Positions 3,576-49,557 of a stretch of DNA of 64,000 nucleotides are shown here, in pieces (position 1 is the first letter of the stretch; each line of letters begins with the position of its first letter). The position numbers were made by a program, and so were the translations under genes. Origin of the DNA: Candidatus Margulisiibacteriota bacterium (GTDB lineage Bacteria > Margulisbacteria > Riflemargulisbacteria > GWF2-35-9). Location: the NCBI GenBank assembly GCA_028715625.1, contig JAQURL010000001.1, forward strand, positions 36,345-100,344, given 5' to 3'. The notes beneath the pieces are model-generated. The model had not been told where the DNA came from. It saw only the letters and a list, made by a program, of their open reading frames with translations, and searched no databases.

Positions 3576-4854
3576 CGGCTGCTTCCCTGATCGAGTCTAA
3601 AAATATTCCGATTGCGGTTTTAATTTCCTCTTTTTTAATGATTAACGGTGGAATCAATCGAATAACTTGGTCATTTTCTCCGCAACTTATTAGCAGTAAT
3701 CCCTTTACTAAAGCAATATTTCGGACACTTTTCACAAACTCAGGGTTCGGTTCCTTTGTCCCCGGCTTAATGAATTCCACGCCTATCATCAGCCCAAAGC
3801 CTCTAACATCGCCTATTTGCTGGTACTTTTTTTGTGCATCTTTTAGTAAAGATTTCATATATTGACCTGTTTCATAAGCATTATCCAGCAGCTTTTCCTT
3901 ATCAATAGTATCAATTGTTGCCAGGCTTGCTGCGCAGGCCACCGGATTTCCGGGGAATGTACCTCCATGTGCTGATGTGGTCCATTGATTCATTAAATCA
4001 GCACGTGCTACACAGGCTCCCAGGGGCAATCCGGAGGCAATAGCTTTAGCCAGCGCGATTACATCAGGCTGAACCTCGTAATGCTCCTTGGCGAACATTT
4101 CACCTGTTCGACCGAATCCTGACTGAATTTCGTCAAATATTAAAATAATATTATGTTCATTAGTGATGTAGCGTAATTCCTGTATAAACTCTACCGGGGC
4201 CGGGATATAGCCACCTTCACCTAAAACCGGTTCAATAATCACAGCTGCAAGGTCATCTTTATTTTTAATAATTTTCTCTTTCATATCAGTTATGCATTGA
4301 AATTTACATTTTCCATAAGTTTGATCATAGGGACATCGATAACAATAAGGAAAATTCGCTGTAATTACGCTATTTATTAGCCAGTCCTCATATCCTTTTT
4401 TATATTTTTCCTTATAAGTAATCGATAATGCTCCTAATGTTCTTCCATGAAACGCCCCGCTAAAAGCCAGCAATTTCTTCTTTTTTGAAACGTACCGTGC
4501 TAACTTAAGGCTTGCCTCAATGGCTTCAGACCCACTCTGAGTAAAAAAAACCGATGCCTCTTTAAATCCGGTTATCTTGACAATTTTTTCAGCCAAATTG
4601 CTATGTGGTGCATAATATGCAATTCCCGCTGCAATATGGATCAACTTTTTTGTCTGCTCACAAATCGCCTTATATATATTCGGATGAACATGACCTGTAT
4701 TAACTACCCCTATACCAGATGTAAAATCAATATACTTCTTGCCATCAACAGTGTATAGGTATAGACCTTCTGCGTGATCCACTTCTAATCTTGTAAAGTG
4801 GCTCAAGACCGGGGATATATATTGATCCGCTTTTTTTAATATTTCGTGGTTCAT
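3568..4854 (-). CDS. Class III pyridoxal-phosphate aminotransferase (acetylornithine/GABA aminotransferase family)
   Basis: DEIQSGFGRTGEMFA PLP-lysine region, GGTFPGNPVACAA, overall AT-III architecture. Confidence 0.75.
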   Translation of the reverse strand: MNHEILKKADQYISPVLSHFTRLEVDHAEGLYLYTVDGKKYIDFTSGIGVVNTGHVHPNIYKAICEQTKKLIHIAAGIAYYAPHSNLAEKIVKITGFKEASVFFTQSGSEAIEASLKLARYVSKKKKLLAFSGAFHGRTLGALSITYKEKYKKGYEDWLINSVITANFPYCYRCPYDQTYGKCKFQCITDMKEKIIKNKDDLAAVIIEPVLGEGGYIPAPVEFIQELRYITNEHNIILIFDEIQSGFGRTGEMFAKEHYEVQPDVIALAKAIASGLPLGACVARADLMNQWTTSAHGGTFPGNPVACAASLATIDTIDKEKLLDNAYETGQYMKSLLKDAQKKYQQIGDVRGFGLMIGVEFIKPGTKEPNPEFVKSVRNIALVKGLLLISCGENDQVIRLIPPLIIKKEEIKTAIGIFLDSIREAAGD

Positions 4855-5760: not shown

Positions 5761-7869
5761 ATGTCAAAAACAATGGACATCTTCGGCGAATTGGTTTTCA
5801 ACAAAGAAGTAATGAAAAATCGTTTAAGCAAGAACGCTTATACTCAACTGATTGATATTATAACCAAAGGTGAATCACTGGAAAAAGAAATAGCCGGAGA
5901 AATTGCACACAGCATTAAAGAATGGGCTATTGAAAACGGTGCAACTCATTATACCCACTGGTTTCAACCGCTCCGGGAAGGTACAGCTGAAAAACATTAT
6001 GCTTTTCTCAGCTACAACGAAGAGGAAGAAATTATCGAACGTTTATCCGCAGAACAGCTTATTCAATCCGAACCTGATGCGTCGTCTTTTCCTTCCGGAG
6101 GTATAAGGTCTACCTTTGAGGCCAGGGGTTATACAGCGTGGGACCCCACATCCCCTGTTTTCCTTATGGAAAGCAAAAACACAAAAACTCTTGTAATTCC
6201 ATCTGTATTTCTGTCCTGGACAGGGGAGGTGCTTGATCAAAAAACCGCCTTGTTAAGATCAAAAAAAGCCCTGAACAATGTATCCATGAAAATCCAAAAA
6301 TTGCTTGGTAACCGCAACGCCAAGAGAACACAGGTATGGCTTGGTATAGAACAGGAATATTTCTTGATACCTAAAGAACATTATACAAATAGACTCGATA
6401 TAAAAATTTGCGGTAAAACATTGTTTGGCACCAAACCGGCCAGAGGTCAGCAATTAAAAGAACATTATTTCGGCGCTATCAAAGAAAATATTTTAAATTT
6501 TATGGAAGATCTGGACACCGAATTATATCGTCGCGGTATACCGGCCAAAACAAGACACAATGAAGTTTCTCCAAACCAGTTTGAAATAGCTCCTTTGTAT
6601 GAAGAAATGAACCTGGCTGTTGACCATAATTTGCAAACAATGTCTATTATGAAAGATGTTGCCGAAAAACATGGCTTGGTAGTTTTGCTCCACGAAAAAC
6701 CTTTTAAGGGTGTTAATGGTTCCGGAAAACATTTGAACTGGTCTATTGGCGACAATACTGGTGTAAATTATCTGGAACCATCCGCATCTCCGTTACGCAA
6801 TGTTACGCTGTTAATGACGGTCGTTTCTATAATGTTGGGAGTTAAAAAATACGGCGCTCTATTAAGAGCTACAGTTTCCGATGCTGGCAACGATGACCGT
6901 CTTGGTGGAAGTGAAGCTCCACCTAATATTATGTCAGTATATTTAGGCGAATATCTGTCATCTCTTCTTAATGAGATTGAAAACATAAACAAGATGACTG
7001 AAAAAAAGATGGCTGAAATCAGCCTGGGGATCAGACAACTTCCCTCCATAACCAAAGATATATCAGATAGGAACAGAACTTCACCTATTGCTTTTACCGG
7101 CAACAAATTTGAGTTTAGAGCTGTAGGTTCTTCTCAAAATTGCTCGGAAGCAGCAACTGTATTGAACCTGATTGTTACATATGGATACGAAATTATTCAC
7201 GATCGCCTGGATAAAATGAAAGGTGATCCCAGAACAAATGCCCTGCTAATTATTAAAGACCTGTTAAAAGAAACAAAGGGAATCCATTTCGAAGGCAACA
7301 GTTACACGGAAGATTGGCACAAAGAAGCACTGAAAAGAGGTCTTCCTAACATTAAAGATACACCATCAGCGCTAAAACATTTAACTGAACATGATAATAT
7401 TAAACTTTTCACAGACTTCCATATATTGTCTGAAAGAGAAATAAAAGCCAGGCAATATATAAAATATCAAAAATACATAGACACAAAACAAATTGAGTTG
7501 AAAATAGCTTGTGAGATAGCACAAAAGCAAATCCAACCTGTCCTGATAAAACAAATGGTATTATTAGGAAAAAGCGCAGAAACACTCAAGGAAAACGATA
7601 TTAATTCAAAAACAATAATAGAAGAACTGAAGAATCTTGAAGAAATCTATAGTAACATTCATAAAACAACCTCACAAATACAAGAGCAAATCAATAAAAA
7701 TAATTCAATAAATAGTAATGACAGCCTGGAAAAATTAGCTTCCAGCTATGCACAAATTTCAGATAAAAGTTTATATGAATTAAGGTCATTAATAGATTCC
7801 GCTGAAAATTTGATAGCTAAAGAGCTCTGGCCCCTTATCGGATATCAGGATTTATTTACTTCACTATAA
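5761..7869 (+). CDS. glnN: Glutamine synthetase type III
   Basis: About 700 aa, N-terminus MSKTMDIFGELVFNKEVMKNRL... typical of GSIII, AGGAG RBS upstream. Confidence 0.8.
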   Translation: MSKTMDIFGELVFNKEVMKNRLSKNAYTQLIDIITKGESLEKEIAGEIAHSIKEWAIENGATHYTHWFQPLREGTAEKHYAFLSYNEEEEIIERLSAEQLIQSEPDASSFPSGGIRSTFEARGYTAWDPTSPVFLMESKNTKTLVIPSVFLSWTGEVLDQKTALLRSKKALNNVSMKIQKLLGNRNAKRTQVWLGIEQEYFLIPKEHYTNRLDIKICGKTLFGTKPARGQQLKEHYFGAIKENILNFMEDLDTELYRRGIPAKTRHNEVSPNQFEIAPLYEEMNLAVDHNLQTMSIMKDVAEKHGLVVLLHEKPFKGVNGSGKHLNWSIGDNTGVNYLEPSASPLRNVTLLMTVVSIMLGVKKYGALLRATVSDAGNDDRLGGSEAPPNIMSVYLGEYLSSLLNEIENINKMTEKKMAEISLGIRQLPSITKDISDRNRTSPIAFTGNKFEFRAVGSSQNCSEAATVLNLIVTYGYEIIHDRLDKMKGDPRTNALLIIKDLLKETKGIHFEGNSYTEDWHKEALKRGLPNIKDTPSALKHLTEHDNIKLFTDFHILSEREIKARQYIKYQKYIDTKQIELKIACEIAQKQIQPVLIKQMVLLGKSAETLKENDINSKTIIEELKNLEEIYSNIHKTTSQIQEQINKNNSINSNDSLEKLASSYAQISDKSLYELRSLIDSAENLIAKELWPLIGYQDLFTSL

Positions 7870-19124: not shown

Positions 19125-19778
19125 ATGCATCCTATTAAATATCTGGTTGACCACATGATGCTTCCCATACTGCAATTTTTTTATCAGTTTTCCGGAAATT
19201 ACGGGACAGCTATTATACTGCTTACCATCACTTTAAAATTAATATTATTCCCCCTAACTGTGAAACAAACAAAATCAATGTCGGAAATGAAAAATATTCA
19301 ACCGAAAATGAAGGAAGTACAGACGAAATATAAAGATAACCCGCAAATGATGCAGATGAAAATCATGGAATTATATAAAGAACATAAGGTAAATCCGTTT
19401 GGAGGTTGCCTGCCTACCCTTATTCAGCTACCGTTTTTTATAGCTATATTTGTAAGCTTGTCCAGTCCTCAATTTAAAAGTTTAATAACTGCCGAAGGGG
19501 CCAAGGCTACTTTCTTCTGGATTAACAATCTCGGTGGTCCGGACAAAACCATGATATTACCTTTGCTTGTAGCTCTTTCAACCTATTATTCACAAATGAC
19601 CATGAGTCCCGGACTTTCCAAAGATGACCCTCAAATGAAAATGTTTGCCTATATGCCTTTTTTGATGTTTTTCATTGCTATGAGCATGCCCAGCGGGGTA
19701 CTGATTTACTGGGCATTGTCTCAATTTATTACAGCTGTTCAGCAATACTTTCTGAATTTGAAGCCAATAAAAAAATAA
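19125..19778 (+). CDS. yidC: Membrane protein insertase YidC/Oxa1 family (short form)
   Basis: 5-TM 60-kDa-IMP core, position after yidD. Confidence 0.8.
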   Translation: MHPIKYLVDHMMLPILQFFYQFSGNYGTAIILLTITLKLILFPLTVKQTKSMSEMKNIQPKMKEVQTKYKDNPQMMQMKIMELYKEHKVNPFGGCLPTLIQLPFFIAIFVSLSSPQFKSLITAEGAKATFFWINNLGGPDKTMILPLLVALSTYYSQMTMSPGLSKDDPQMKMFAYMPFLMFFIAMSMPSGVLIYWALSQFITAVQQYFLNLKPIKK

Positions 19779-19782
19779 CTTT

Positions 19783-20334
19783 TTGAAAGGAGATATTAAT
19801 ATGGGTTTATTTGACATTTTTAAAGGATCGGAAGAAAAAACAGAAAACAATCAGATTTCGGAGGATTCCGGAAACACCATCAATGATGATATGCATAACA
19901 TCGCTAAAGATACGTTAACTGAAATTTTAGACCTGATGGGATTTTTTAATGTAGTAAAAATACTGAATTTTGATACAACTTTTGTATCGCTGGAAATCAA
20001 AGGAGATGATTTGGGCAGGATAATAGGCAAAGAAGGCAACACCTTATATGCTCTGCAATATTTATTAAAAAATATATTAAGTAAAAAATATAAACGTCCT
20101 GTTAACGTACAGTTAGATGCCAATAATTACAGGGAAAAAAGAACTAACTCTATAACCAATATGGCTCTTGAAGCCGCACAAAAAGCTATAGCTGAAAACA
20201 GAGAGATTTTGATGCCAGCCATGAACGCCTGGGAACGCAGGATAGTTCATACCACTCTGATGGAAAATGGTAAAGTCAAAACAGAAAGCATAGGCAGAGA
20301 ACAGGACAGAAAAGTTATTGTCTCTCCAAAATGA
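19783..20334 (+). CDS. jag: Jag/KhpB RNA-binding protein (KH + R3H)
   Basis: Position after yidC. C-terminal R3H-like region (RRIVHTTL...). Confidence 0.7.
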   Translation: MKGDINMGLFDIFKGSEEKTENNQISEDSGNTINDDMHNIAKDTLTEILDLMGFFNVVKILNFDTTFVSLEIKGDDLGRIIGKEGNTLYALQYLLKNILSKKYKRPVNVQLDANNYREKRTNSITNMALEAAQKAIAENREILMPAMNAWERRIVHTTLMENGKVKTESIGREQDRKVIVSPK

Positions 20335-21716
20335 CCCTGGCTCCTTTTGCTGACACTATAGCGGCTATTTCCACACCGTTGGGGATTGGGGGAATAGCTG
20401 TTATAAGGATCAGCGGTCCTGATACTGTAAAAATTGTTAAACAGGTTAGCTCCCTGAATAAACCTGTTCCTAATCAGATTCGTTTTACATCTTTTTTTAG
20501 TCCTGATAAAAATAAAATAGATGAAGGGCTGCTTTCATTTTTTAAAGGGCCTTTTTCTTTTACCGGCGAAGACATGGCTGAACTCAACTGCCATGGAGGG
20601 TATGTGGTTGCTCAAAAGCTTATAGATACGCTCCTTCGGCTAGGCGCCAGGCAGGCAGACAAAGGCGAGTTTACCATGCGGGCTTTTATTAACGGCAAAA
20701 TAGATCTGATGCAGGCCGAGTCGGTGATCGATTTAATTGAGGCCAAAACAGAAAAAGCTTCCGGCATTTTCGTCCATCAGCTGGAAGGCAGATTGTCCAA
20801 AAAAATTCAGACTATCCGCGAGCAGTTACTCAAACTTATAAGTCATCTTGAGGTTCATCTTGATTATCCTGAAGAAGAAGATTTAAAAAAACCCTCTGAC
20901 TATGCAAATATTATTAAGGACCTGGTCAGCCGAATAGACCACTTGTTAGCTACATATAACACCGGCCGGCTGCTCAAAGAGGGCATTTTAACGGTTATAG
21001 CAGGTGCGCCAAATGTCGGTAAATCCAGCCTTCTTAACGCGCTTTTAAAAGATAACCGGGCAATAGTAACTGATATTCCCGGGACAACCAGAGATACAAT
21101 CGAGGAATGGATGCAATTGGAAGGTATCCCCTTTAAATTTGTGGATACTGCCGGTTTGCGGAACAGCCAGAATAAAATAGAAATAATCGGTATGGGCAAA
21201 ACTAAAAAATTAATAAACAAGGCTGATCTGGTTTTATTGATGTTAGATGCCGGAAGAGATCTGAATAAAGATGACCAGGCCATTTTAAAAAAACTTGATC
21301 CTAAAAAAACCGTCGTTATTATCAACAAAATTGATCTTCCTAAAAATTGCTCGAAAAAAATTACCGAGCTCCCCTCCCTGAAATTTTTTTCTTCTAATAT
21401 TTATCAGTTATCGGTTAAAAAAAGAAAAGGGCTGACAGCTCTGGAAAAAGGCCTGGTCAAATTCGCTCAAAAAAATTTTCTGACAGCTAGCGAACAAAAG
21501 GACGCGATTATCAGTAATGACAGACAAAAAGAACAGCTCATCAGCGCTAAAAAAACTTTATCCTCGGCTTTGAAATCAATAAAAAAGGGCCTTTCCGAGG
21601 ACCTCTGGTTGATTGATCTCCGTCTGGCATTAAGCACCCTAGGCTCCATAATCGGTGAAGATATCAGCGAAGAAGTGCTAAATGATATTTTTTCCAGATT
21701 TTGCGTGGGAAAGTAA
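20331..21716 (+). CDS. mnmE: tRNA modification GTPase MnmE
   Basis: G-domain motifs GAPNVGKSSLLN, DTAG. C-terminal CxGK tetrapeptide (CVGK). Confidence 0.9.
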   Translation: MTLAPFADTIAAISTPLGIGGIAVIRISGPDTVKIVKQVSSLNKPVPNQIRFTSFFSPDKNKIDEGLLSFFKGPFSFTGEDMAELNCHGGYVVAQKLIDTLLRLGARQADKGEFTMRAFINGKIDLMQAESVIDLIEAKTEKASGIFVHQLEGRLSKKIQTIREQLLKLISHLEVHLDYPEEEDLKKPSDYANIIKDLVSRIDHLLATYNTGRLLKEGILTVIAGAPNVGKSSLLNALLKDNRAIVTDIPGTTRDTIEEWMQLEGIPFKFVDTAGLRNSQNKIEIIGMGKTKKLINKADLVLLMLDAGRDLNKDDQAILKKLDPKKTVVIINKIDLPKNCSKKITELPSLKFFSSNIYQLSVKKRKGLTALEKGLVKFAQKNFLTASEQKDAIISNDRQKEQLISAKKTLSSALKSIKKGLSEDLWLIDLRLALSTLGSIIGEDISEEVLNDIFSRFCVGK

Positions 21717-21720
21717 AAAA

Positions 21721-21876
21721 TGGCGGGCGCTTTGCGCCAAAATCCGAATGGAATGGGCCTAAACGGGCGCGGCTGGGGCACTCCGCGGGGCAGCCGCGCC
21801 CTCGAGTGACGACTACGACGATTTCAAGGTTTTCGGGTCAGCGTTGCTGACCTGTTGGCTCTCGGGGAGAGCCAAA
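21721..21876. other. GC-rich cluster of four consecutive hairpins directly downstream of mnmE
   Basis: ggcgc-ttt-gcgcc (21726-21738). gggcgcggctg/cagccgcgccc, an 11-bp stem (21765-21801). ggtcagc-gtt-gctgacc (21836-21852). ttggctctc-ggg-gagagccaa (21855-21875). Confidence 0.5.
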
Positions 21877-21922
21877 CCCTTGCGGCAAATTCTTTTGAAT
21901 TTCTTGAAGTCCTCAGTATACT
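21855..21922 (+). promoter_or_regulatory. Operator-like palindrome plus promoter (module copy 1): TTGGCTCTC-N3-GAGAGCCAA, then -35 TTGAAT / -10 TATACT
   Basis: Perfect 9-bp inverted repeat. -35 at 21895-21900, 16-nt spacer, -10 at 21917-21922. ATG at 21930 is only 7 nt past the -10 (near-leaderless). Confidence 0.45.
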
Positions 21923-21929
21923 AAAAGGT

Positions 21930-22142
21930 ATGACAAACCTCCCACAAGTTGTATCTAATATTCCCCCGTCCGTTCAATGGCTCATCGACACCATTTGTAA
22001 CGAAATCGAGCACGGCAAGAAACTCACCTACTGGAATATCGGCAAGCATATCAAGGAACATAATACCTTCAAAAAAGGATGTCAGAATTTAACAATCTCA
22101 GAAGAAAAGAAGCATACCAAAATCGATTTGAAAGATATCTAA
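21930..22142 (+). CDS. Small hypothetical protein (70 aa); the ORF-track start at 21855 lies inside the hairpin and is rejected
   Basis: ATG follows the duplicated promoter module. MTNLPQVVSNIPPSVQWLIDTI.... Confidence 0.4.
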   Translation: MTNLPQVVSNIPPSVQWLIDTICNEIEHGKKLTYWNIGKHIKEHNTFKKGCQNLTISEEKKHTKIDLKDI

Positions 22143-22279
22143 AAGAATTGAACAGCGAAAACAAATGGAAGTTGCTTGATGAGTTTTTTCAAAAGAACCT
22201 AGATCAAATCGATGTTTTAAATGAGCAGAAGATGAATGAAAGCATAAACAATTTACTTCAAGACATATATTCAAATTAG
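22079..22279 (+). CDS. Small hypothetical helical protein overlapping the previous ORF in another frame (possible frameshifted continuation)
   Basis: 66-aa ORF with non-low-complexity sequence. Overlaps 21930..22142 by 64 nt. Confidence 0.25.
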   Translation: MSEFNNLRRKEAYQNRFERYLKELNSENKWKLLDEFFQKNLDQIDVLNEQKMNESINNLLQDIYSN

Positions 22280-22297
22280 ATTGGCTGGTCAGTTGGC

Positions 22298-22361
22298 GCT
22301 CTAAGAGAGCCAAAACCTTGTGTAAATTCTTTTGATTTATTTGAGCTGGGAGTATAATCAA
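22298..22361 (+). promoter_or_regulatory. Operator-like palindrome plus promoter (module copy 2): TTGGCGCTCT-AA-GAGAGCCAA, then -35 TTGATT / -10 TATAAT
   Basis: About 80 bp, roughly 75% identical to copy 1 (gagagccaaaaccttgtgtaaattcttttgatttatttgag...agtataat). ATG at 22362 is 7 nt past the -10. Confidence 0.45.
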
Positions 22362-23003
22362 ATGAGAATGACAGGCATTAAATATGTAATTGAACATTAT
22401 CCAGCGGTAATTGCAATACTTGGCACTTTGTCTGGACTTGTTTCGGTGTTACTGGGTGCAATAATATCAGCAAATGGAAATAAGATAAAACAGAAAGAGT
22501 TACAGCTTACAGAACAACAATTTATCTCGGACAAAAAACATCAGATCTCAAAGGAAAAGTATCAGAAATTGTTTAAGGAAAGGATTGAGGTTTACAAACA
22601 AATATTTATTGAGCTTAAGAAACTAAGTAAAAACCTGCGTGTTGTAGGGAATGCCCTATATAGGGTTGATCAATTTGGTTGTGATAGAACCGAAGTAATC
22701 ACCACAGAAAAGGTTAACGTAAAGACTTTGCAAACCCTTTTCAAATTAATTGAGGATAATAGTTTTTTGATTTCAGAAAAAACCCTTGAGTTAGTTAAGG
22801 GTCTTGAAGATTTTTACTGGAAATACAGAGCTGAAACGGATTCTTTGTATGATGTAGGGGCAATTGGCCCTGATGATATTGATGATGCGATAGAAAGCGA
22901 TCATAAGAAATTTTATGAGGAACAGGTCAACAGAATAAAAGAGTTCTATATACAGATCGAACAAGAAATATCATCAATGAAAAAGGATATGGGGTTTAAC
23001 TGA
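22362..23003 (+). CDS. Hypothetical membrane-anchored coiled-coil protein
   Basis: N-terminal TM helix (AVIAILGTLSGLVSVLLGAIIS), then heptad-rich coiled coil. No known motif. Confidence 0.45.
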   Translation: MRMTGIKYVIEHYPAVIAILGTLSGLVSVLLGAIISANGNKIKQKELQLTEQQFISDKKHQISKEKYQKLFKERIEVYKQIFIELKKLSKNLRVVGNALYRVDQFGCDRTEVITTEKVNVKTLQTLFKLIEDNSFLISEKTLELVKGLEDFYWKYRAETDSLYDVGAIGPDDIDDAIESDHKKFYEEQVNRIKEFYIQIEQEISSMKKDMGFN

Positions 23004-23113
23004 TAACAACGGGTGCAATATTCGTTACAATCTATTATCAAGAGCAGTGTTCGAATTAAGCATTTACCTGCTGACACTTGAGTAATATTAGTTGAAGGAA
23101 TAAAGTATATAAT

Positions 23114-23497
23114 ATGGATGCAGCAATAATTAAAATATTTTTTTGCATCGCTTATATAAAGGGCCTTATGCCTTCGCCTATCGTTTTATTAGTACTATTA
23201 GGGCTTGTATTATTTTACCCTCTTCGAAACAATAAAAGAGTTCTATTTCGAATATTGACTTGGGCATTTTTTGTTCCACTATCGTTTAACTTAATGACTA
23301 TGTCTGCTGGACTAACCTATAATGAGACCGAAAGTAGACTTATATCGCTTATTGTTTCTTTAGTAGTAGGCGTCATATATATTGCGGCACCACTTTTAAT
23401 TAATAGACTACAAAAATTTAAGCTTAAATTTATTGTTATTGGCGTATTATTAATATTCATTTTGGTTATCCCTGTATTCATCAAGTATGTGTTTTAA
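23114..23497 (+). CDS. Hypothetical small integral membrane protein (3-4 TM)
   Basis: Hydrophobic segments throughout. Confidence 0.4.
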   Translation: MDAAIIKIFFCIAYIKGLMPSPIVLLVLLGLVLFYPLRNNKRVLFRILTWAFFVPLSFNLMTMSAGLTYNETESRLISLIVSLVVGVIYIAAPLLINRLQKFKLKFIVIGVLLIFILVIPVFIKYVF

Positions 23498-23500
23498 GGT

Positions 23501-23722
23501 TTAGCTAAGAAAATTTTCACATTTTTTTTTATAAATCTTAGCAAAATCCATCATTTCAATGACATCTAGACGACGTTCTCCAGATTCTATTTTAGAAATG
23601 TATGATTGTGGTTTATTTAACAAGAGGGCAACATCAATTTGCTTTAGATTAGCCTCACTTCTAGCTTGTTTAAGCCTATCAATAAGCTTTAAGTACTTTT
23701 CTTTATAAATTGTTTTAGCCAT
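23501..23722 (-). CDS. XRE-family helix-turn-helix transcriptional regulator (Cro/CI-type)
   Basis: HTH: [39 protein letters not shown]. Confidence 0.8.
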
Positions 23723-24002
23723 AAATAGTTTGAAACCCCGATAATTTTATGATATATTCCAAATCAGGATATACCATAATGGAATATTAACTCAATGCGC
23801 AAAATTTTGCTTTTCTTCAAAATGAAATTCGAGCCGATTTTTCGTGACGTAGCTAAAAACTTAGACAGGAGCAAGGTGAGATAGTGGGCTGGCTTGCCGA
23901 GTCGAAGCTTTGCGACAACTATCTTTTACTTGTCCGCCTTCACTATGTTTCGGCGTGACAGTCTTCGCTAATCTCCTCGACTTCTCGTCGCTAAGCGAAG
24001 AC

Positions 24003-24091
24003 TGGCGGAGAGAGAGGGATTCGAACCCTCGATACCTTGCGGTAAACCACCTTTCCAGAGTGGCGCCATAGACCAACTAGGCGATCTCTCC
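24003..24091 (-). tRNA. tRNA-Ser (anticodon GGA)
   Basis: Reverse complement GGAGAGATCGCCTAGTTGGTCTATGGCGCCACTCTGGAAAGGTGG...GAGGGTTCGAATCCCTCTCTCTCCGCCA: long variable arm, anticodon loop CTGGAAA, encoded CCA. Confidence 0.8.
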
Positions 24092-24145
24092 TTAATCGAA
24101 TAAAGGCAATTATATCAACGAATACTTCTATTTGCTATAATATTT

Positions 24146-24871
24146 TTGCCACTTGGACAGAAAATACCTTGGCAAATAAACAACCTGTTCAAAATTAACA
24201 ACAGCATGCTAAAATTAGCACGGATTATGAAATTTAACATCTTTGATTTTTTACTACCCAGAGAAACCAAATTTTTTCATTACATGCTGGACCACGCGAA
24301 CTGCTTTGCAGAAGCATCAGTGCTTTTCAGAGACCTGTTAGCTAATCTGGAAACTATGAAAGAAGACGAAAAAAAATTGCTGCTTTTATCAATTAAAGAA
24401 TGCGAAAGCCGCGGGGATTCCATAGAAAAGAAAATGATCGATGAACTGAATCAGACTTTCATCACCCCGATCGATCGGGAAGATATTCACACTCTTGCTA
24501 TTAAACTCGACAGAGCTATTGATATTTTGAACAATCTTGCTAAAAAAATAGATATTTATAAAATCAATAAAGTCCCAAGTAATGCAAACAAATTCGCTGA
24601 TATTATTATTGCAATCGGACAATTAATGGTTTTACTCATCAAAGAACTGGAAAACAAAAGAAATGTCGAACAGATACAGGTAAAAATGCACTTTCTGGAA
24701 AATGAAGCTGACGACCTGTTTCATACTTCCATAGCAGAGTTGTTTAGCCTGAAACATGCACCAATTGATATTATCCGTTACAAAGAATTATATGAACATC
24801 TTGAGTCTATTGTGGACGCGGTAGACTATGTAGGCAAAATTATTCGCGGCATTAAAGTAAAACAAGCTTAA
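24146..24871 (+). CDS. DUF47-family (PhoU-like) phosphate-transport regulator (true start probably 24206-24227)
   Basis: Helical PhoU-like protein directly upstream of a PiT transporter (conserved pairing). Confidence 0.65.
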   Translation: MPLGQKIPWQINNLFKINNSMLKLARIMKFNIFDFLLPRETKFFHYMLDHANCFAEASVLFRDLLANLETMKEDEKKLLLLSIKECESRGDSIEKKMIDELNQTFITPIDREDIHTLAIKLDRAIDILNNLAKKIDIYKINKVPSNANKFADIIIAIGQLMVLLIKELENKRNVEQIQVKMHFLENEADDLFHTSIAELFSLKHAPIDIIRYKELYEHLESIVDAVDYVGKIIRGIKVKQA

Positions 24872-35833: not shown

Positions 35834-36322
35834 ATGAAATATAAAATTATCGGACTGCTAAATTCCTCTTTACCTTTTATACCTGAAAAAACCAGGATAA
35901 TTATTAAACCCAACGAAATAAAATGGCTTTTCGGACAAATTACCAATAAACATCCTGAAAATGTTCATTTCATATATACAAACATTTCAGGCTATCTGTT
36001 CCTGATTATAAAGGATGAGCAAATCTGGTTAAACTTGCATAAAAAAATATCTTTTCGCTATCGACATCTGATTGCTCCAAACACCGGTGATAATGAACCT
36101 ACTGTGGAAAATAATGAAGGCTACATTTATTGCACTAAAAAAAGCAAGAATCAGGCTTTAAAAGAAAAAATGGAACGTTTTGACTATACAATCCATAAAC
36201 CTGTTTTCCCTCAAGTCCTTGCCCCCGGTATTTGGTTTGTTCCCGGAATGCTGCTAAGTGAAAAGGAAATAAATATTCAAAAAAATTTATTAAAGTTCTT
36301 AAGTAATAACCTCGGAATATAG
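35834..36322 (+). CDS. Hypothetical protein
   Basis: ORF only; no motif recognised. Confidence 0.3.
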   Translation: MKYKIIGLLNSSLPFIPEKTRIIIKPNEIKWLFGQITNKHPENVHFIYTNISGYLFLIIKDEQIWLNLHKKISFRYRHLIAPNTGDNEPTVENNEGYIYCTKKSKNQALKEKMERFDYTIHKPVFPQVLAPGIWFVPGMLLSEKEINIQKNLLKFLSNNLGI

Positions 36323-47609: not shown

Positions 47610-47747
47610 ATGGAAAAAACCAAAGAGGAAGTTTTGAAAAAGATGTTTGAAGAAGCTGTGAAAATAGATAAACCTATTTATTCACCTATAAGTGTTGTCC
47701 TGACAATTGAGAATAAACAATTTATGTTGTTGTTTAGTAACAATTAA
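47610..47747 (+). CDS. Very small hypothetical ORF (45 aa)
   Basis: ATG with AAGGG RBS. Immediately followed by a terminator. Not in the ORF track. Confidence 0.2.
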   Translation: MEKTKEEVLKKMFEEAVKIDKPIYSPISVVLTIENKQFMLLFSNN

Positions 47748-47775
47748 GTAAAGGGAGGCTTAAGCCTCCCTTTAC
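47748..47775. terminator. Bidirectional rho-independent terminator (perfect 28-nt palindrome)
   Basis: gtaaagggaggcttaagcctccctttac followed by TTTTA on plus. On minus it sits just after the pckG stop with ttaattgtt following. Confidence 0.6.
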
Positions 47776-47784
47776 TTTTAGAAA

Positions 47785-49557
47785 TTAATGTCTGAAGTGT
47801 TTCTCAACTTTATTAAATTCCTGCCAAATGCCATCAGGTATATGCCCTTCAAACTGGTTGAAGAACTTTTCCACATCCTGTAGTTCCGCCTGCCATTCAT
47901 TTTTGTTGATCTCAAAAATTTTTTCCATTTTTTCTTCAGGAATATTCAGGCCTTTCAGGTCCAGGTCTTTAATATTAGGAATAAGCCCTATTGGTGTTTC
48001 ATTCGCCTGCACTTTATTATCAATCCTGTCCAATATCCATTTCAAAACGCGCATATTATCACCGAAACCCGGCCAAATATATTTGCCGTCATCATCGGTC
48101 CTGAACCAGTTAACAGTGTAAATTTTGGGAGGATTGGTCAGTTTTTTACCAACCTTCAACCAATGATTAAAATAATCTCCCATGTTATAGCCACAAAAAG
48201 GTATCATAGCCATTGGGTCTCTTCTTAATTGACCTTCTTTATGAGTTGCGGCCGCTGTAGTTTCTGAGCCTGTTCTTGCACCCAGGAAAACACCATGCTG
48301 CCAGTCAAAAGCCTCGAGCACCAAAGGAATAAGCTTAGCCCTTCTTCCTCCTAATATAATCGCGGATATAGGAACGCCGTGGGGATTGTCTGCTTCCGTA
48401 GAAAGCGTGGGACAATTATAAATGGAAGCTGTAAACCTGGAATTGGGATGAGCTGCTTTGGTATTTAAAGACTTATCCCAGGGTTTACCTTGCCAATCAA
48501 TCATGTTTTTTGGCATTTCGCCATCCAAACCTTCCCACCATGGTTCATTTTTATCAATATCTATAGCGGTATTGGTATATAAAGTCGGGAAATATTTGTC
48601 GGCTTTCAATGTTCTCATCATGTTAGGATTGGTCTTCATGGAAGTACCAGGAGCAACGCCAAAAAATCCTGATTCCGGATTTATGGCGTAAAGCCTTCCG
48701 TCTGGCCCTACGTTCAACCAAGCTATATCATCGCCTAATGTCCAGATTTTATAACCGGGCAAAGCTGATTGCAGCATGGCCAGATTTGTCTTGCCACAAG
48801 CTGAGGGCATGGCCGCTGTTATATAGGTTACTTTGCCTTGCGGGTCTTCAATGCCCATTACCACCATATGTTCTGCCAGCCAGCCTTCTTTGTAGCCCTG
48901 CCAGGAAGCTATTCTCAATGAAAAACACTTTTTACCCAGAAGTGCATTACCCCCGTAACCCGATCCTATGCTCCACACAAACTGTTCATCAGGAAAATGC
49001 ATGATAAATCTTTTATTGGGGTCGAAATCGCCAACCGAATGTAACCCTTTAACAAATTTATCTGAATTCCCTATCTTGTCCAGAATTTGCTTACCCATGC
49101 GAGTCATTATCCTCATGCTCACCGCAACATAGCTCACATCGGTCAGCTGTACACACATCTTGGCATAAGGTGAATCCGGGTGGCCCATCATATAGGGCAT
49201 AACATACATGGTCTTACCGCGCATGCAACCATCGGAAAGCTGGGTCATCATTTCTTTGGCCTCTGCGGGATCCATCCAGTTGTTGTTAGGCCCGGCTATA
49301 TCTTTATTCTTATGACAAACAAATGTCAGATGTTCGGTACGGGCTACATCTGTCGGATGACTTTTATGATAATATGAATTTGGCCAGCTTTTCTGGTTAA
49401 GTTCACGAAAAATAGGTGTATCTCCAATTTTTTCCTCTTTTATTCCAATTTCAATGAGTTTCCGTGCTTCTTCTTCTGAACCGTCGCACCAGTAAATCTT
49501 ATCCGGCTTGGTTAAAATTGCCTGCTCCTCTACCCATTTCTCCAACGGTGTTGCCAT
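47785..49557 (-). CDS. pckG: Phosphoenolpyruvate carboxykinase (GTP)
   Basis: About 590 aa GTP-type PEPCK: kinase P-loop region, PEPCK-specific motifs. Confidence 0.9.
   Translation of the reverse strand: MATPLEKWVEEQAILTKPDKIYWCDGSEEEARKLIEIGIKEEKIGDTPIFRELNQKSWPNSYYHKSHPTDVARTEHLTFVCHKNKDIAGPNNNWMDPAEAKEMMTQLSDGCMRGKTMYVMPYMMGHPDSPYAKMCVQLTDVSYVAVSMRIMTRMGKQILDKIGNSDKFVKGLHSVGDFDPNKRFIMHFPDEQFVWSIGSGYGGNALLGKKCFSLRIASWQGYKEGWLAEHMVVMGIEDPQGKVTYITAAMPSACGKTNLAMLQSALPGYKIWTLGDDIAWLNVGPDGRLYAINPESGFFGVAPGTSMKTNPNMMRTLKADKYFPTLYTNTAIDIDKNEPWWEGLDGEMPKNMIDWQGKPWDKSLNTKAAHPNSRFTASIYNCPTLSTEADNPHGVPISAIILGGRRAKLIPLVLEAFDWQHGVFLGARTGSETTAAATHKEGQLRRDPMAMIPFCGYNMGDYFNHWLKVGKKLTNPPKIYTVNWFRTDDDGKYIWPGFGDNMRVLKWILDRIDNKVQANETPIGLIPNIKDLDLKGLNIPEEKMEKIFEINKNEWQAELQDVEKFFNQFEGHIPDGIWQEFNKVEKHFRH

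Follow-up and report, generated by a model that had tools for sequence, protein, structure and literature searches.

A locally duplicated promoter-like region with an inverted repeat precedes two accessory genes in a Candidatus Margulisbacteria genome

The window analysed here, a stretch of 64,000 nucleotides from a MAG of an uncultured Candidatus Margulisbacteria host, contains a direct repeat of two copies, each about 90 nucleotides long, located at 21846-21935 and 22284-22373 with an offset of 438 nt. The explanation we favour, with a probability of roughly 45%, is a local duplication of a 5' regulatory region, whose copies would serve as promoters and head two accessory transcription units, ORF1(/ORF2) and ORF3(/ORF4), in an islet of 2.3 kb. 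Each copy would most likely be a sigma-70-type promoter, with the transcript starting at the start codon or within 3 nt of it, so that the transcript from copy 1 would be leaderless and that from copy 2 would have a leader of 0-3 nt. The 21-bp inverted repeat (dyad) in each copy could most simply be a site for a dimeric DNA-binding protein, in an upstream activator-type or modulatory role. A regulatory duplication of this kind before accessory genes is plausible, but ordinary.

Organization of the repeat and of the islet

The two copies are identical in 69 of 94 alignment columns (73%, or 80% when gap columns are excluded). Their Smith-Waterman score is 53, while shuffled sequences score 18.7±2.4 with a maximum of 29 (n=300); the duplication of this module of about 90 nt is far above chance. 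It bears out a preliminary description, which had reported an element of about 80 bp in two copies, about 75% identical. From left to right, the locus contains the following features:

20331-21716, + strand: mnmE, conserved, bounding the islet on the left (Pfam TrmE_N, MnmE_helical and MMR_HSR1; name from PGAP)
21721-21850, no strand: string of GC-rich non-coding hairpins, about 75% GC, the highest in the window, adjoining copy 1
21846-21935, + strand: repeat copy 1, with dyad, promoter-like boxes and ATGACA
21855-21875, no strand: dyad 1, TTGGCTCTC-ggg-GAGAGCCAA, with perfect 9-bp arms (9+9 palindrome)
21895-21922, + strand: -35-like TTGAAT, 16-nt spacer, -10-like TATACT, from the promoter scan (9/12 matches)
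21930-22142, + strand: ORF1, 70 aa, PGAP PHV30_00305, an orphan of uncertain coding status
22079-22279, + strand: ORF2, 66 aa, called in the Logan assembly only, in another frame and overlapping ORF1
22284-22373, + strand: repeat copy 2, with dyad, promoter-like boxes and ATGACA
22293-22313, no strand: dyad 2, TTGGCGCTC-taa-GAGAGCCAA, with one arm mismatch (G6·A16)
22332-22358, + strand: -35-like TTGATT, 15-nt spacer, -10 TATAAT, read from the sequence
22368-23003, + strand: ORF3, 211 aa, PHV30_00310, with an alternative ATG at 22362
23114-23497, + strand: ORF4, 127 aa, putative multi-pass membrane protein, an orphan
23501-23722, - strand: XRE-family HTH regulator, 73 aa (HTH_3, E=3.9e-10)
23754-23787, no strand: inverted repeat ATATTCCA-N18-TGGAATAT upstream of the XRE gene, different from the TTGGC dyads
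24003-24091, - strand: tRNA-Ser(GGA), bounding the islet on the right, with its 3' end toward the islet

The order within both copies is the same, the 21-bp dyad being followed by the -35-like hexamer, the -10-like hexamer and ATGACA. The arms of the dyad (17/18 identical), AAATTCTTTTGA at the -35, AGTATA at the -10 and the initial ATGACA are the most conserved parts, and the spacer between the hexamers is the least conserved (9/17 identical), a distribution that supports the duplication of a regulatory region, although with two copies constraint is inseparable from shared descent and arms conserved at 17/18 have a P of about 0.1 at a background identity of 80%. Both copies keep 65 nt between the centre of the dyad and ATGACA, internal indels notwithstanding, which also speaks for this reading. 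Perfect inverted repeats had been described in both copies; dyad 1 is indeed one, while in dyad 2 the G at position 6 faces an A. Perfect 9+9 palindromes are present at four loci in the 64 kb, so a single one is not rare. Dyads of the GAGAGCCAA type are located, within the window, at the two module sites only. Readings of the dyad as a sigma-54, parS or LysR-box site were considered and do not fit on reading the sequence.

No third copy of the module is found by word-7 blastn of both copies against the 64-kb window and the fetched loci, nor do further palindromes of the module type, for which the preliminary description had suggested a search, exist in the 64 kb. With two copies in the window and no true copy in the collections scanned by strict patterns, the repeat does not look like one of the many-copy dispersed elements of the REP or MITE kind. 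The pattern TTGGCNCTCNNNGAGAGCCAAANCCTTG has no match in genome contigs, the pattern GTTGGCNCTCNNNGAGAGCCAAA has three in metagenome contigs, all with unrelated flanks and none a true copy, and two patterns scanned in viral contigs have none and four, the flanks of the four being unrelated; the matches in these collections are due to chance only. When 21717-21940 is compared with plasmids and phages by blastn, the best matches are no longer than about 30 nt, with an E of about 0.7. A 28-nt likeness between the first bases of one fetched locus (L001) and the start of copy 2 is out of register and sub-threshold in blastn, and was rejected as chance.

The modules are located in a lineage-specific islet reaching from mnmE to tRNA-Ser(GGA). 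In Marinamargulisbacteria relatives the linkage of these two flanks is kept and the intervening content is different, which indicates that the islet is variable. Rfam searches of the whole window (gathering threshold) and of 21600-24200 (E<=10) reveal no RNA family, either for the modules or for the GC-rich hairpins.

Behind copy 1, ORF1 has no homologues and a codon score of 0.18, at the low end among the genes of the window; both points weaken the favoured reading. If the A6 run at 22071-22076 had one more A, ORF1 and ORF2 would be joined into a product of 116 aa. Its identification as a frameshifted known gene was rejected, the fusion having weak matches to PADLOC PDC-S02 (E=0.005-0.012) and in Pfam; among 5.8 billion clusters it has no homologue but itself. 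Neither ORF1 nor ORF2 is similar to ORF3.

Behind copy 2, ORF3 is a real, conserved gene, with a family of about 60 cluster representatives (at 50% identity) that carry no annotation. Its predicted structure is all-helical and confident (pLDDT 91), with a membrane helix at the N-terminus and a bundle of helices; comparison with the PDB returns generic helical bundles only (OspC, the Tsr ligand-binding domain; E>=0.016). The family is associated with defence islands and prophages: relatives are located between the halves of split BREX PglX genes, beside a TIR protein and at prophage ends. The N-terminus of ORF3 aligns with those of its relatives, which confirms the coding start and puts it no more than 9 nt after TATAAT. 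The sequences upstream of the relatives are in every case other than that of ORF3 and none contains the module, so the module would be a local acquisition, as expected when a gene in a new site needs a promoter.

Promoter-like boxes and start codons

Sigma-70-like boxes had been reported in both copies. The pair in copy 1 is detected by the promoter scan, in which the -35 and -10 hexamers must each match at >=4/6 positions with a spacer of 16-18 nt, and this detection supports the favoured reading. In copy 2 both hexamers also match at >=4/6 positions, but the pair is absent from the scan output because its sub-optimal spacer of 15 nt is outside the range. This spacer weakens the case for a duplicated promoter, as does the frequency of promoter-like sites in the AT-rich region, which is that of chance (9 found, 9.4 expected from shuffled sequence).

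The start codons had been placed 7 nt after the -10 box in both copies. This is the case in copy 1 (ATG at 21930); in copy 2 the ATG at 22362 is 3 nt after the box and the ATG at 22368, which is aligned with that of copy 1 and is the start chosen by PGAP, is 9 nt after it. These gaps are too short for a Shine-Dalgarno sequence, and neither start codon has such a motif at a suitable distance; in copy 1 an AAGG ends 1 nt before the ATG. An AUG without a Shine-Dalgarno sequence, at a start supported independently by the ORF3 relatives, is what a leaderless gene would have; the start of ORF1, which lacks homologues, has no such support. A Shine-Dalgarno-like motif is missing from about 56% of the window's genes, so its absence alone does not imply a leaderless mRNA, and translation of ORF1 and ORF3 from longer transcripts started upstream could occur. 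A -10-like hexamer (>=5/6 matches to TATAAT) ends 4-6 nt before the start in 5 of the 55 long ORFs of the window, where about 1.5 are expected at the background rate, and in three of these five it is a perfect TATAAT. From their sequence, it is plausible that the modules contain a promoter giving a leaderless or near-leaderless mRNA.

Both dyads span about -75 to -55 from ATGACA, with their centre at -65 and their end 18-19 nt before the -35 hexamer. This would be an upstream position of the activator type, from which a bound protein would not occlude RNA polymerase. The dyad cannot be linked with any candidate regulator, which weakens the favoured reading further.

Other explanations of the dyads and of the repeat

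A different, unlikely explanation is that the hairpins act in RNA, as terminators, insulators or stabilisers at the 3' ends of the mnmE (copy 1) and ORF2 (copy 2) transcripts, each 3' structure being joined directly to the promoter of the following unit as in moron-like terminator-promoter junctions. The position of the dyads is in keeping with this, dyad 2 beginning 14 nt past the ORF2 stop codon and dyad 1 closing the run of GC-rich hairpins downstream of mnmE, and the ORF3 family resembles a moron or defence cargo gene in its behaviour. The predicted stems are stable, with -13.6 kcal/mol for dyad 1 and -9.2 kcal/mol for dyad 2, which folds as (((((.(((...))).))))), and the copies differ mostly at loop positions. 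However, the single arm substitution in dyad 2 is uncompensated and the folding z-scores are unremarkable (-0.6 to -0.9). Neither stem-loop has the immediate U-tract of an intrinsic (Rho-independent) terminator; there is no T-run within 2 nt, the closest is 12-14 nt off, and the terminator scan finds nothing on the + strand at either dyad. Terminators with U-tracts, which the preliminary description had named as the identity of the palindromes that would speak against it, are not what is found.

That description had proposed a compact switch, in which the 73-aa XRE protein represses both promoters with the dyads as its operators; this we consider quite unlikely. The regulator gene is present as described, 1.2 kb off and on the opposite strand, within the same islet as the modules, and the best PADLOC matches of its product are HTH regulators of defence islands and control proteins of restriction-modification systems. 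A dyad of 21 bp whose half-site centres lie about 11 bp apart would suit an HTH dimer, and the confinement of the dyads to the two modules would agree with such a role. The proposal fails to convince on geometry: a protein bound so far upstream of the -35 hexamer would leave the core promoter free, and the dyads do not overlap the core promoter or the start site as operators of the Cro/CI type do. It is also at odds with the gene arrangement. The XRE gene is convergent with ORF4, neither divergent from nor adjoining the genes that the modules head, its supposed targets, and the Cro/CI-type combination of an operator at its own promoter with an adjacent or divergent regulator gene is not seen there. 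No TTGGC..GCCAA dyad is found upstream of the XRE gene; the different inverted repeat at 23754-23787 is a candidate autoregulatory site. XRE relatives on viral contigs have no such dyad nearby either, weak evidence at their distance of 30-43% identity. Nothing ties the module to the nearby XRE regulator, and the repressor-operator reading of the dyads is a weak one.

It is likewise improbable that the repeat is neutral, left behind by a tandem duplication or by insertion of the ORF1-ORF2 segment through recombination, with the dyad and the promoter-like hexamers now functionless, at least in copy 1. Two tandem copies at 73-80% identity, two orphans whose coding statistics are marginal and which may be frameshifted, promoter-like sites at chance frequency and the lack of any module copy in the scanned collections are all compatible with such an origin. 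It does not account for the blocks relevant to a promoter being the best conserved or for the constant distance from dyad to start, and the conserved ORF3 needs some promoter, for which the module is the sole candidate directly upstream.

A recombination or cassette junction, in which the module is a recombinase or transposase site, comparable to attC sites or the end hairpins of IS200/IS605-type elements, that builds up accessory genes at a tRNA-Ser hotspot, would agree with the small gene segment flanked by similar hairpins in direct orientation, the variable gap by a tRNA gene and the unexplained GC-rich hairpin cluster at the islet boundary, but is very improbable, since the stretch from mnmE to tRNA-Ser encodes neither an integrase nor a transposase, no att-like direct repeats link the islet's left end with its tRNA-Ser flank, no other module copy is found in the collections or fetched loci, and the similarity extends 60 nt past the hairpin, via the promoter-like boxes, to the start codon. 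Integron attC sites, imperfect palindromes 57-141 nt long, carry R''/R' core sites and lie near an integron integrase gene; at 21 bp the dyad falls well short of this length, its GTTGGCT does not fit GTTRRRY, and the interval from mnmE to tRNA-Ser, which the recombinase check covered, contains no recombinase. Just as far-fetched is a portable junction, composed of the module and the 75%-GC hairpin cluster, in which a structured site with an outward leaderless promoter recruits and expresses defence or moron cargo at tRNA-Ser; if true, this Margulisbacteria lineage would have a cassette system that lacks any recognisable integrase.

Comparison with known systems and significance

Class I sites of CRP are centred at -61.5 and the recognition sites of LysR-type regulators at about -65. 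Similarly, the module dyad is at about -62 to -65 from the presumed transcription start, upstream of the -35 and -10 boxes. Unlike in these promoters, no activator gene of the CRP/FNR or LysR families is near the modules, and the dyad, a putative binding site, fits neither the T-N11-A LysR box nor the TGTGA-N6-TCACA box.

The controller (C-protein) systems of restriction-modification loci have C-box promoters and leaderless C mRNAs (PMC2632904; PMC2175313). Their C-boxes are double operators of 35 bp, typically about 18 nt from the C gene start and usually without a recognisable -10 box (PMC2632904). The locus shares with them a small XRE-family HTH protein, which matches the PADLOC 'Control_protein' model with E=4e-4, palindromic sites and start codons at the presumed transcription start. 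It differs in that the dyad is single, 21 bp long and ends 54 nt before the ATG, in that the -10-like boxes are strong, and in that the modules precede genes other than a C gene, with products that are not HTH proteins. No restriction enzyme or methyltransferase domains are encoded in the islet, so the double C-box, C gene and restriction enzyme gene of a controller system are not found together.

Phage morons were reportedly defined by Hendrix and colleagues in 2000. Like morons or defence cargo with their own promoter and terminator, the units described here are self-contained and have been inserted into a gap of variable content, the ORF3 family is present at prophage ends and in or beside defence systems, and the hairpin and promoter of the module recall a terminator-promoter boundary. 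Unlike in morons, the hairpins are not followed by a U-tract, and the islet contains neither phage genes nor an integrase.

Margulisbacteria are, to our knowledge, a candidate phylum with neither a cultured model nor promoter data. Should the modules prove active as promoters, Margulisbacteria would provide a clean natural case in which accessory genes, probably defence-related ones, are expressed from leaderless mRNAs, and the modules would form a two-site regulon for a DNA-binding protein. The ORF3 family is a more useful by-product of the analysis than the duplicated 5' region itself.

Organisation of the locus

The window (37% GC) belongs to a Candidatus Margulisbacteria MAG, in which proteins of the region are tagged PHV30_00305 and PHV30_00310 (PGAP), on a contig of 109 kb. 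The Logan assembly of run SRR22315506, made independently, is base-for-base identical over positions 21171–24014, so the region is no assembly artefact.

Features of the region (position, strand, description)
19125–19778, +, yidC
19783–20334, +, jag/khpB
20331–21716, +, mnmE
21721–21850, no strand, non-coding hairpin string, 75% GC
21846–21935, +, repeat copy 1
21930–22142, +, ORF1
22079–22279, +, ORF2
22284–22373, +, repeat copy 2
22368–23003, +, ORF3
23114–23497, +, ORF4
23501–23722, −, XRE gene
24003–24091, −, tRNA-Ser(GGA)
from 24146, +, PhoU_div/DUF47 and PiT genes

The two closest genomes available are Marinamargulisbacteria, with MnmE proteins 51–54% identical. In both, tRNA-Ser(GGA) again follows mnmE, 0.2–2 kb away, with different intervening content or none; the 2.3-kb interval thus forms an islet specific to this lineage, at a variable spot flanked by a tRNA gene. 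ORF and domain searches found no integrase encoded in the islet, and no att-like repeats were found for it. In one of these relatives (locus L007), the 5' part of tRNA-Ser(GGA) is present as a partial copy just after mnmE (7411–7440), with the intact tRNA (7568–7657) about 150 nt downstream; the partial copy hints at an earlier integration or recombination event at this tRNA.

The hairpin string abutting copy 1 is 130 nt long and, at about 75% GC against 37% for the genome, is the GC-richest part of the window. Its hairpins are GGCGC-ttt-GCGCC, a perfect stem of 11 bp (GGGCGCGGCTG..CAGCCGCGCCC) and GGTCAGC-gtt-GCTGACC. It has no match in Rfam, plasmids or phages, and is not present after mnmE in related genomes. 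A local GC-rich patch, at 10058–10246 (minus strand), was rejected as an RNA gene: it is due to GCTGGTGCT-type tandem repeats coding for the Ala/Pro-rich tail of a 62-aa lipoprotein-like ORF, whose signal peptide ends in Cys. Elsewhere, a perfect, GC-containing palindrome with 15-bp arms (47746–47777, AAGTAAAGGGAGGCT-ta-AGCCTCCCTTTACTT), located just 3' of where the minus-strand gene 47785–49557 ends (stop codon at 47785), is probably that gene's transcription terminator.

The duplicated module

Both copies are recovered by repeat search and by MAFFT. The duplication exceeds chance: a local alignment spanning 90 nt of each copy, with 69 of 94 columns identical, scores 53, compared with 18.7±2.4 (maximum 29) for shuffled sequence, which bears out the two related copies of the preliminary description. 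Promoter-like sites alone occur at chance level (9 in 2.8 kb, versus 9.4 in shuffles), and a lone 9+9 palindrome is not beyond chance in a scan of the window.

In copy 1, the dyad TTGGCTCTC-ggg-GAGAGCCAA forms a 9+9 palindrome without mismatch (fold −13.6 kcal/mol), and a promoter scan detects TTGAAT and TATACT, separated by 16 nt and followed after 7 nt by ATG. The preliminary description is largely confirmed, its outline being right and three details, all in copy 2, wrong. Dyad 2, TTGGCGCTC-taa-GAGAGCCAA, had also been called perfect; a G·A mismatch in it is uncompensated, and its fold is weaker (−9.2 kcal/mol). The boxes TTGATT and TATAAT stand, with a corrected spacer of 15 nt. Instead of one ATG at 7 nt, the first ATG lies 3 nt and ATGACA 9 nt after TATAAT, the latter aligning with the copy 1 start and being the PGAP start codon.

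Conservation between the copies (identical positions)
Dyad arms, 17/18
Dyad centre, 0/3
−35 block, 6/7
−35/−10 spacer, 9/17
−10 hexamer, 5/6
ATGACA, 6/6

The distance from dyad centre to ATGACA is 65 nt in either copy, compensating 1-nt indels notwithstanding. This pattern of conservation agrees with a promoter that has a protein site 5' of it. We infer, at every functional step, a duplicated sigma-70-type promoter whose mRNAs would be leaderless or nearly so, the dyad being a putative site for a dimeric factor, and judge this reading slightly below even odds. With TATAAT as the −10 and the ORF3 start fixed by alignment with relatives, the leader would be at most a few nucleotides. The earlier interpretation is partly supported, in that the promoter module and a short or absent leader stay plausible. 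The feature adds one more example to a kind already known.

An SD-like motif is missing from about 56% of the long ORFs in the window, so SD-independent translation from longer transcripts is also possible. With two copies, the repeat could be a neutral relic of duplication. The dyads might instead be RNA hairpins forming terminator–promoter junctions, for which their positions are suitable, one just past the stop codon of ORF2 and the other behind the hairpin string that follows mnmE; however, a terminator scan finds no U-tract behind either stem, and the arm change of copy 2 is uncompensated.

The preliminary description had suggested a possible repressor-controlled switch with an XRE regulator nearby; operators repressing through that XRE protein are a weak alternative that is left unsupported. 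The dyads occupy about −75 to −55, 18–19 nt 5' of the −35, in the geometry of an upstream activator rather than of an operator occluding RNA polymerase. The XRE gene is 1.2 kb off and convergent with ORF4, and upstream of it a dyad search finds no TTGGC..GCCAA dyad and a different inverted repeat, ATATTCCA-N18-TGGAATAT. For a recombination site or cassette junction there is no positive evidence.

The XRE-upstream repeat (23754–23787) contains inner half-site-like copies, GGATATA and ATATACC, and is likely an XRE autoregulatory site. One more exact copy of its 8-mer lies within ORF1 (22032–22039, minus strand). Restriction-modification controller proteins invite comparison, being small members of the XRE family that have palindromic C-boxes and whose mRNAs are leaderless (PMC2632904). 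A C-box, however, is a double site of 35 bp, placed about 18 nt from the C gene's own start codon and usually without a recognisable −10 (PMC2632904); the dyads differ in these defining features and no restriction or modification genes were found, so C-box identity was rejected.

A third copy is absent from the 64 kb in exact, 1–2-mismatch and gapped dyad searches and in word-7 blastn, confining the element to two places. Pattern scans of public collections returned no true copy: there were 0 matches in the species-representative genome collection, 3 in the JGI metagenome collection, and 0 and 4 in IMG/VR, all with unrelated flanks.

The associated genes and translation starts

ORF3 is a real gene, with about 60 cluster representatives in an exhaustive profile search. 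Its AlphaFold model, built on 28 relatives (pLDDT 91), predicts an N-terminal membrane helix continuing as a long helix, a helical bundle and a small beta-hairpin, and has no significant match in the PDB. At three independent loci (among L001, L018, L019 and L020), the closest relatives (about 208 aa, unannotated, with a membrane helix and a helical bundle) sit precisely where the N-terminal and C-terminal halves of a split PglX, the BREX methyltransferase, meet, and their start and stop codons overlap with those of the genes on either side. Neither PADLOC nor Pfam covers this small gene. At one locus (L017), a relative (183–803) precedes a TIR_2 protein (892–1692), and at two others (L021, L022) relatives occupy the end of a prophage, with tail genes and a Dam-type methyltransferase as neighbours. 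In character, the family resembles an accessory gene for defence or superinfection exclusion. The module is absent from all ORF3-relative loci examined, several of which have a GGAG Shine-Dalgarno sequence in its place; it is therefore local and does not travel with ORF3.

A homologue search found none for ORF1 or ORF2, and their codon statistics are marginal. One A added to the A6 run at 22071–22076 would fuse them (70 and 66 aa) into a 116-aa orphan product; the arrangement may stem from a frameshift mutation or a sequencing error, or there may be two distinct small genes. ORF4 appears to be an orphan membrane protein.

The genes at 4854 (minus-strand start), 35834, 36355 and 24146 have a −10-like hexamer 4–6 nt before the start and no Shine-Dalgarno sequence; the hexamer is TATAAT, or GATAAT at 35834. 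Among the 55 long ORFs of the window, five have such a hexamer ending 4–6 nt before the start codon (TATAAT without mismatch in three), where the background rate predicts about 1.5. Leaderless initiation elsewhere in the genome is therefore possible, and starts that are leaderless or independent of an SD may be common in this member of the Margulisbacteria.
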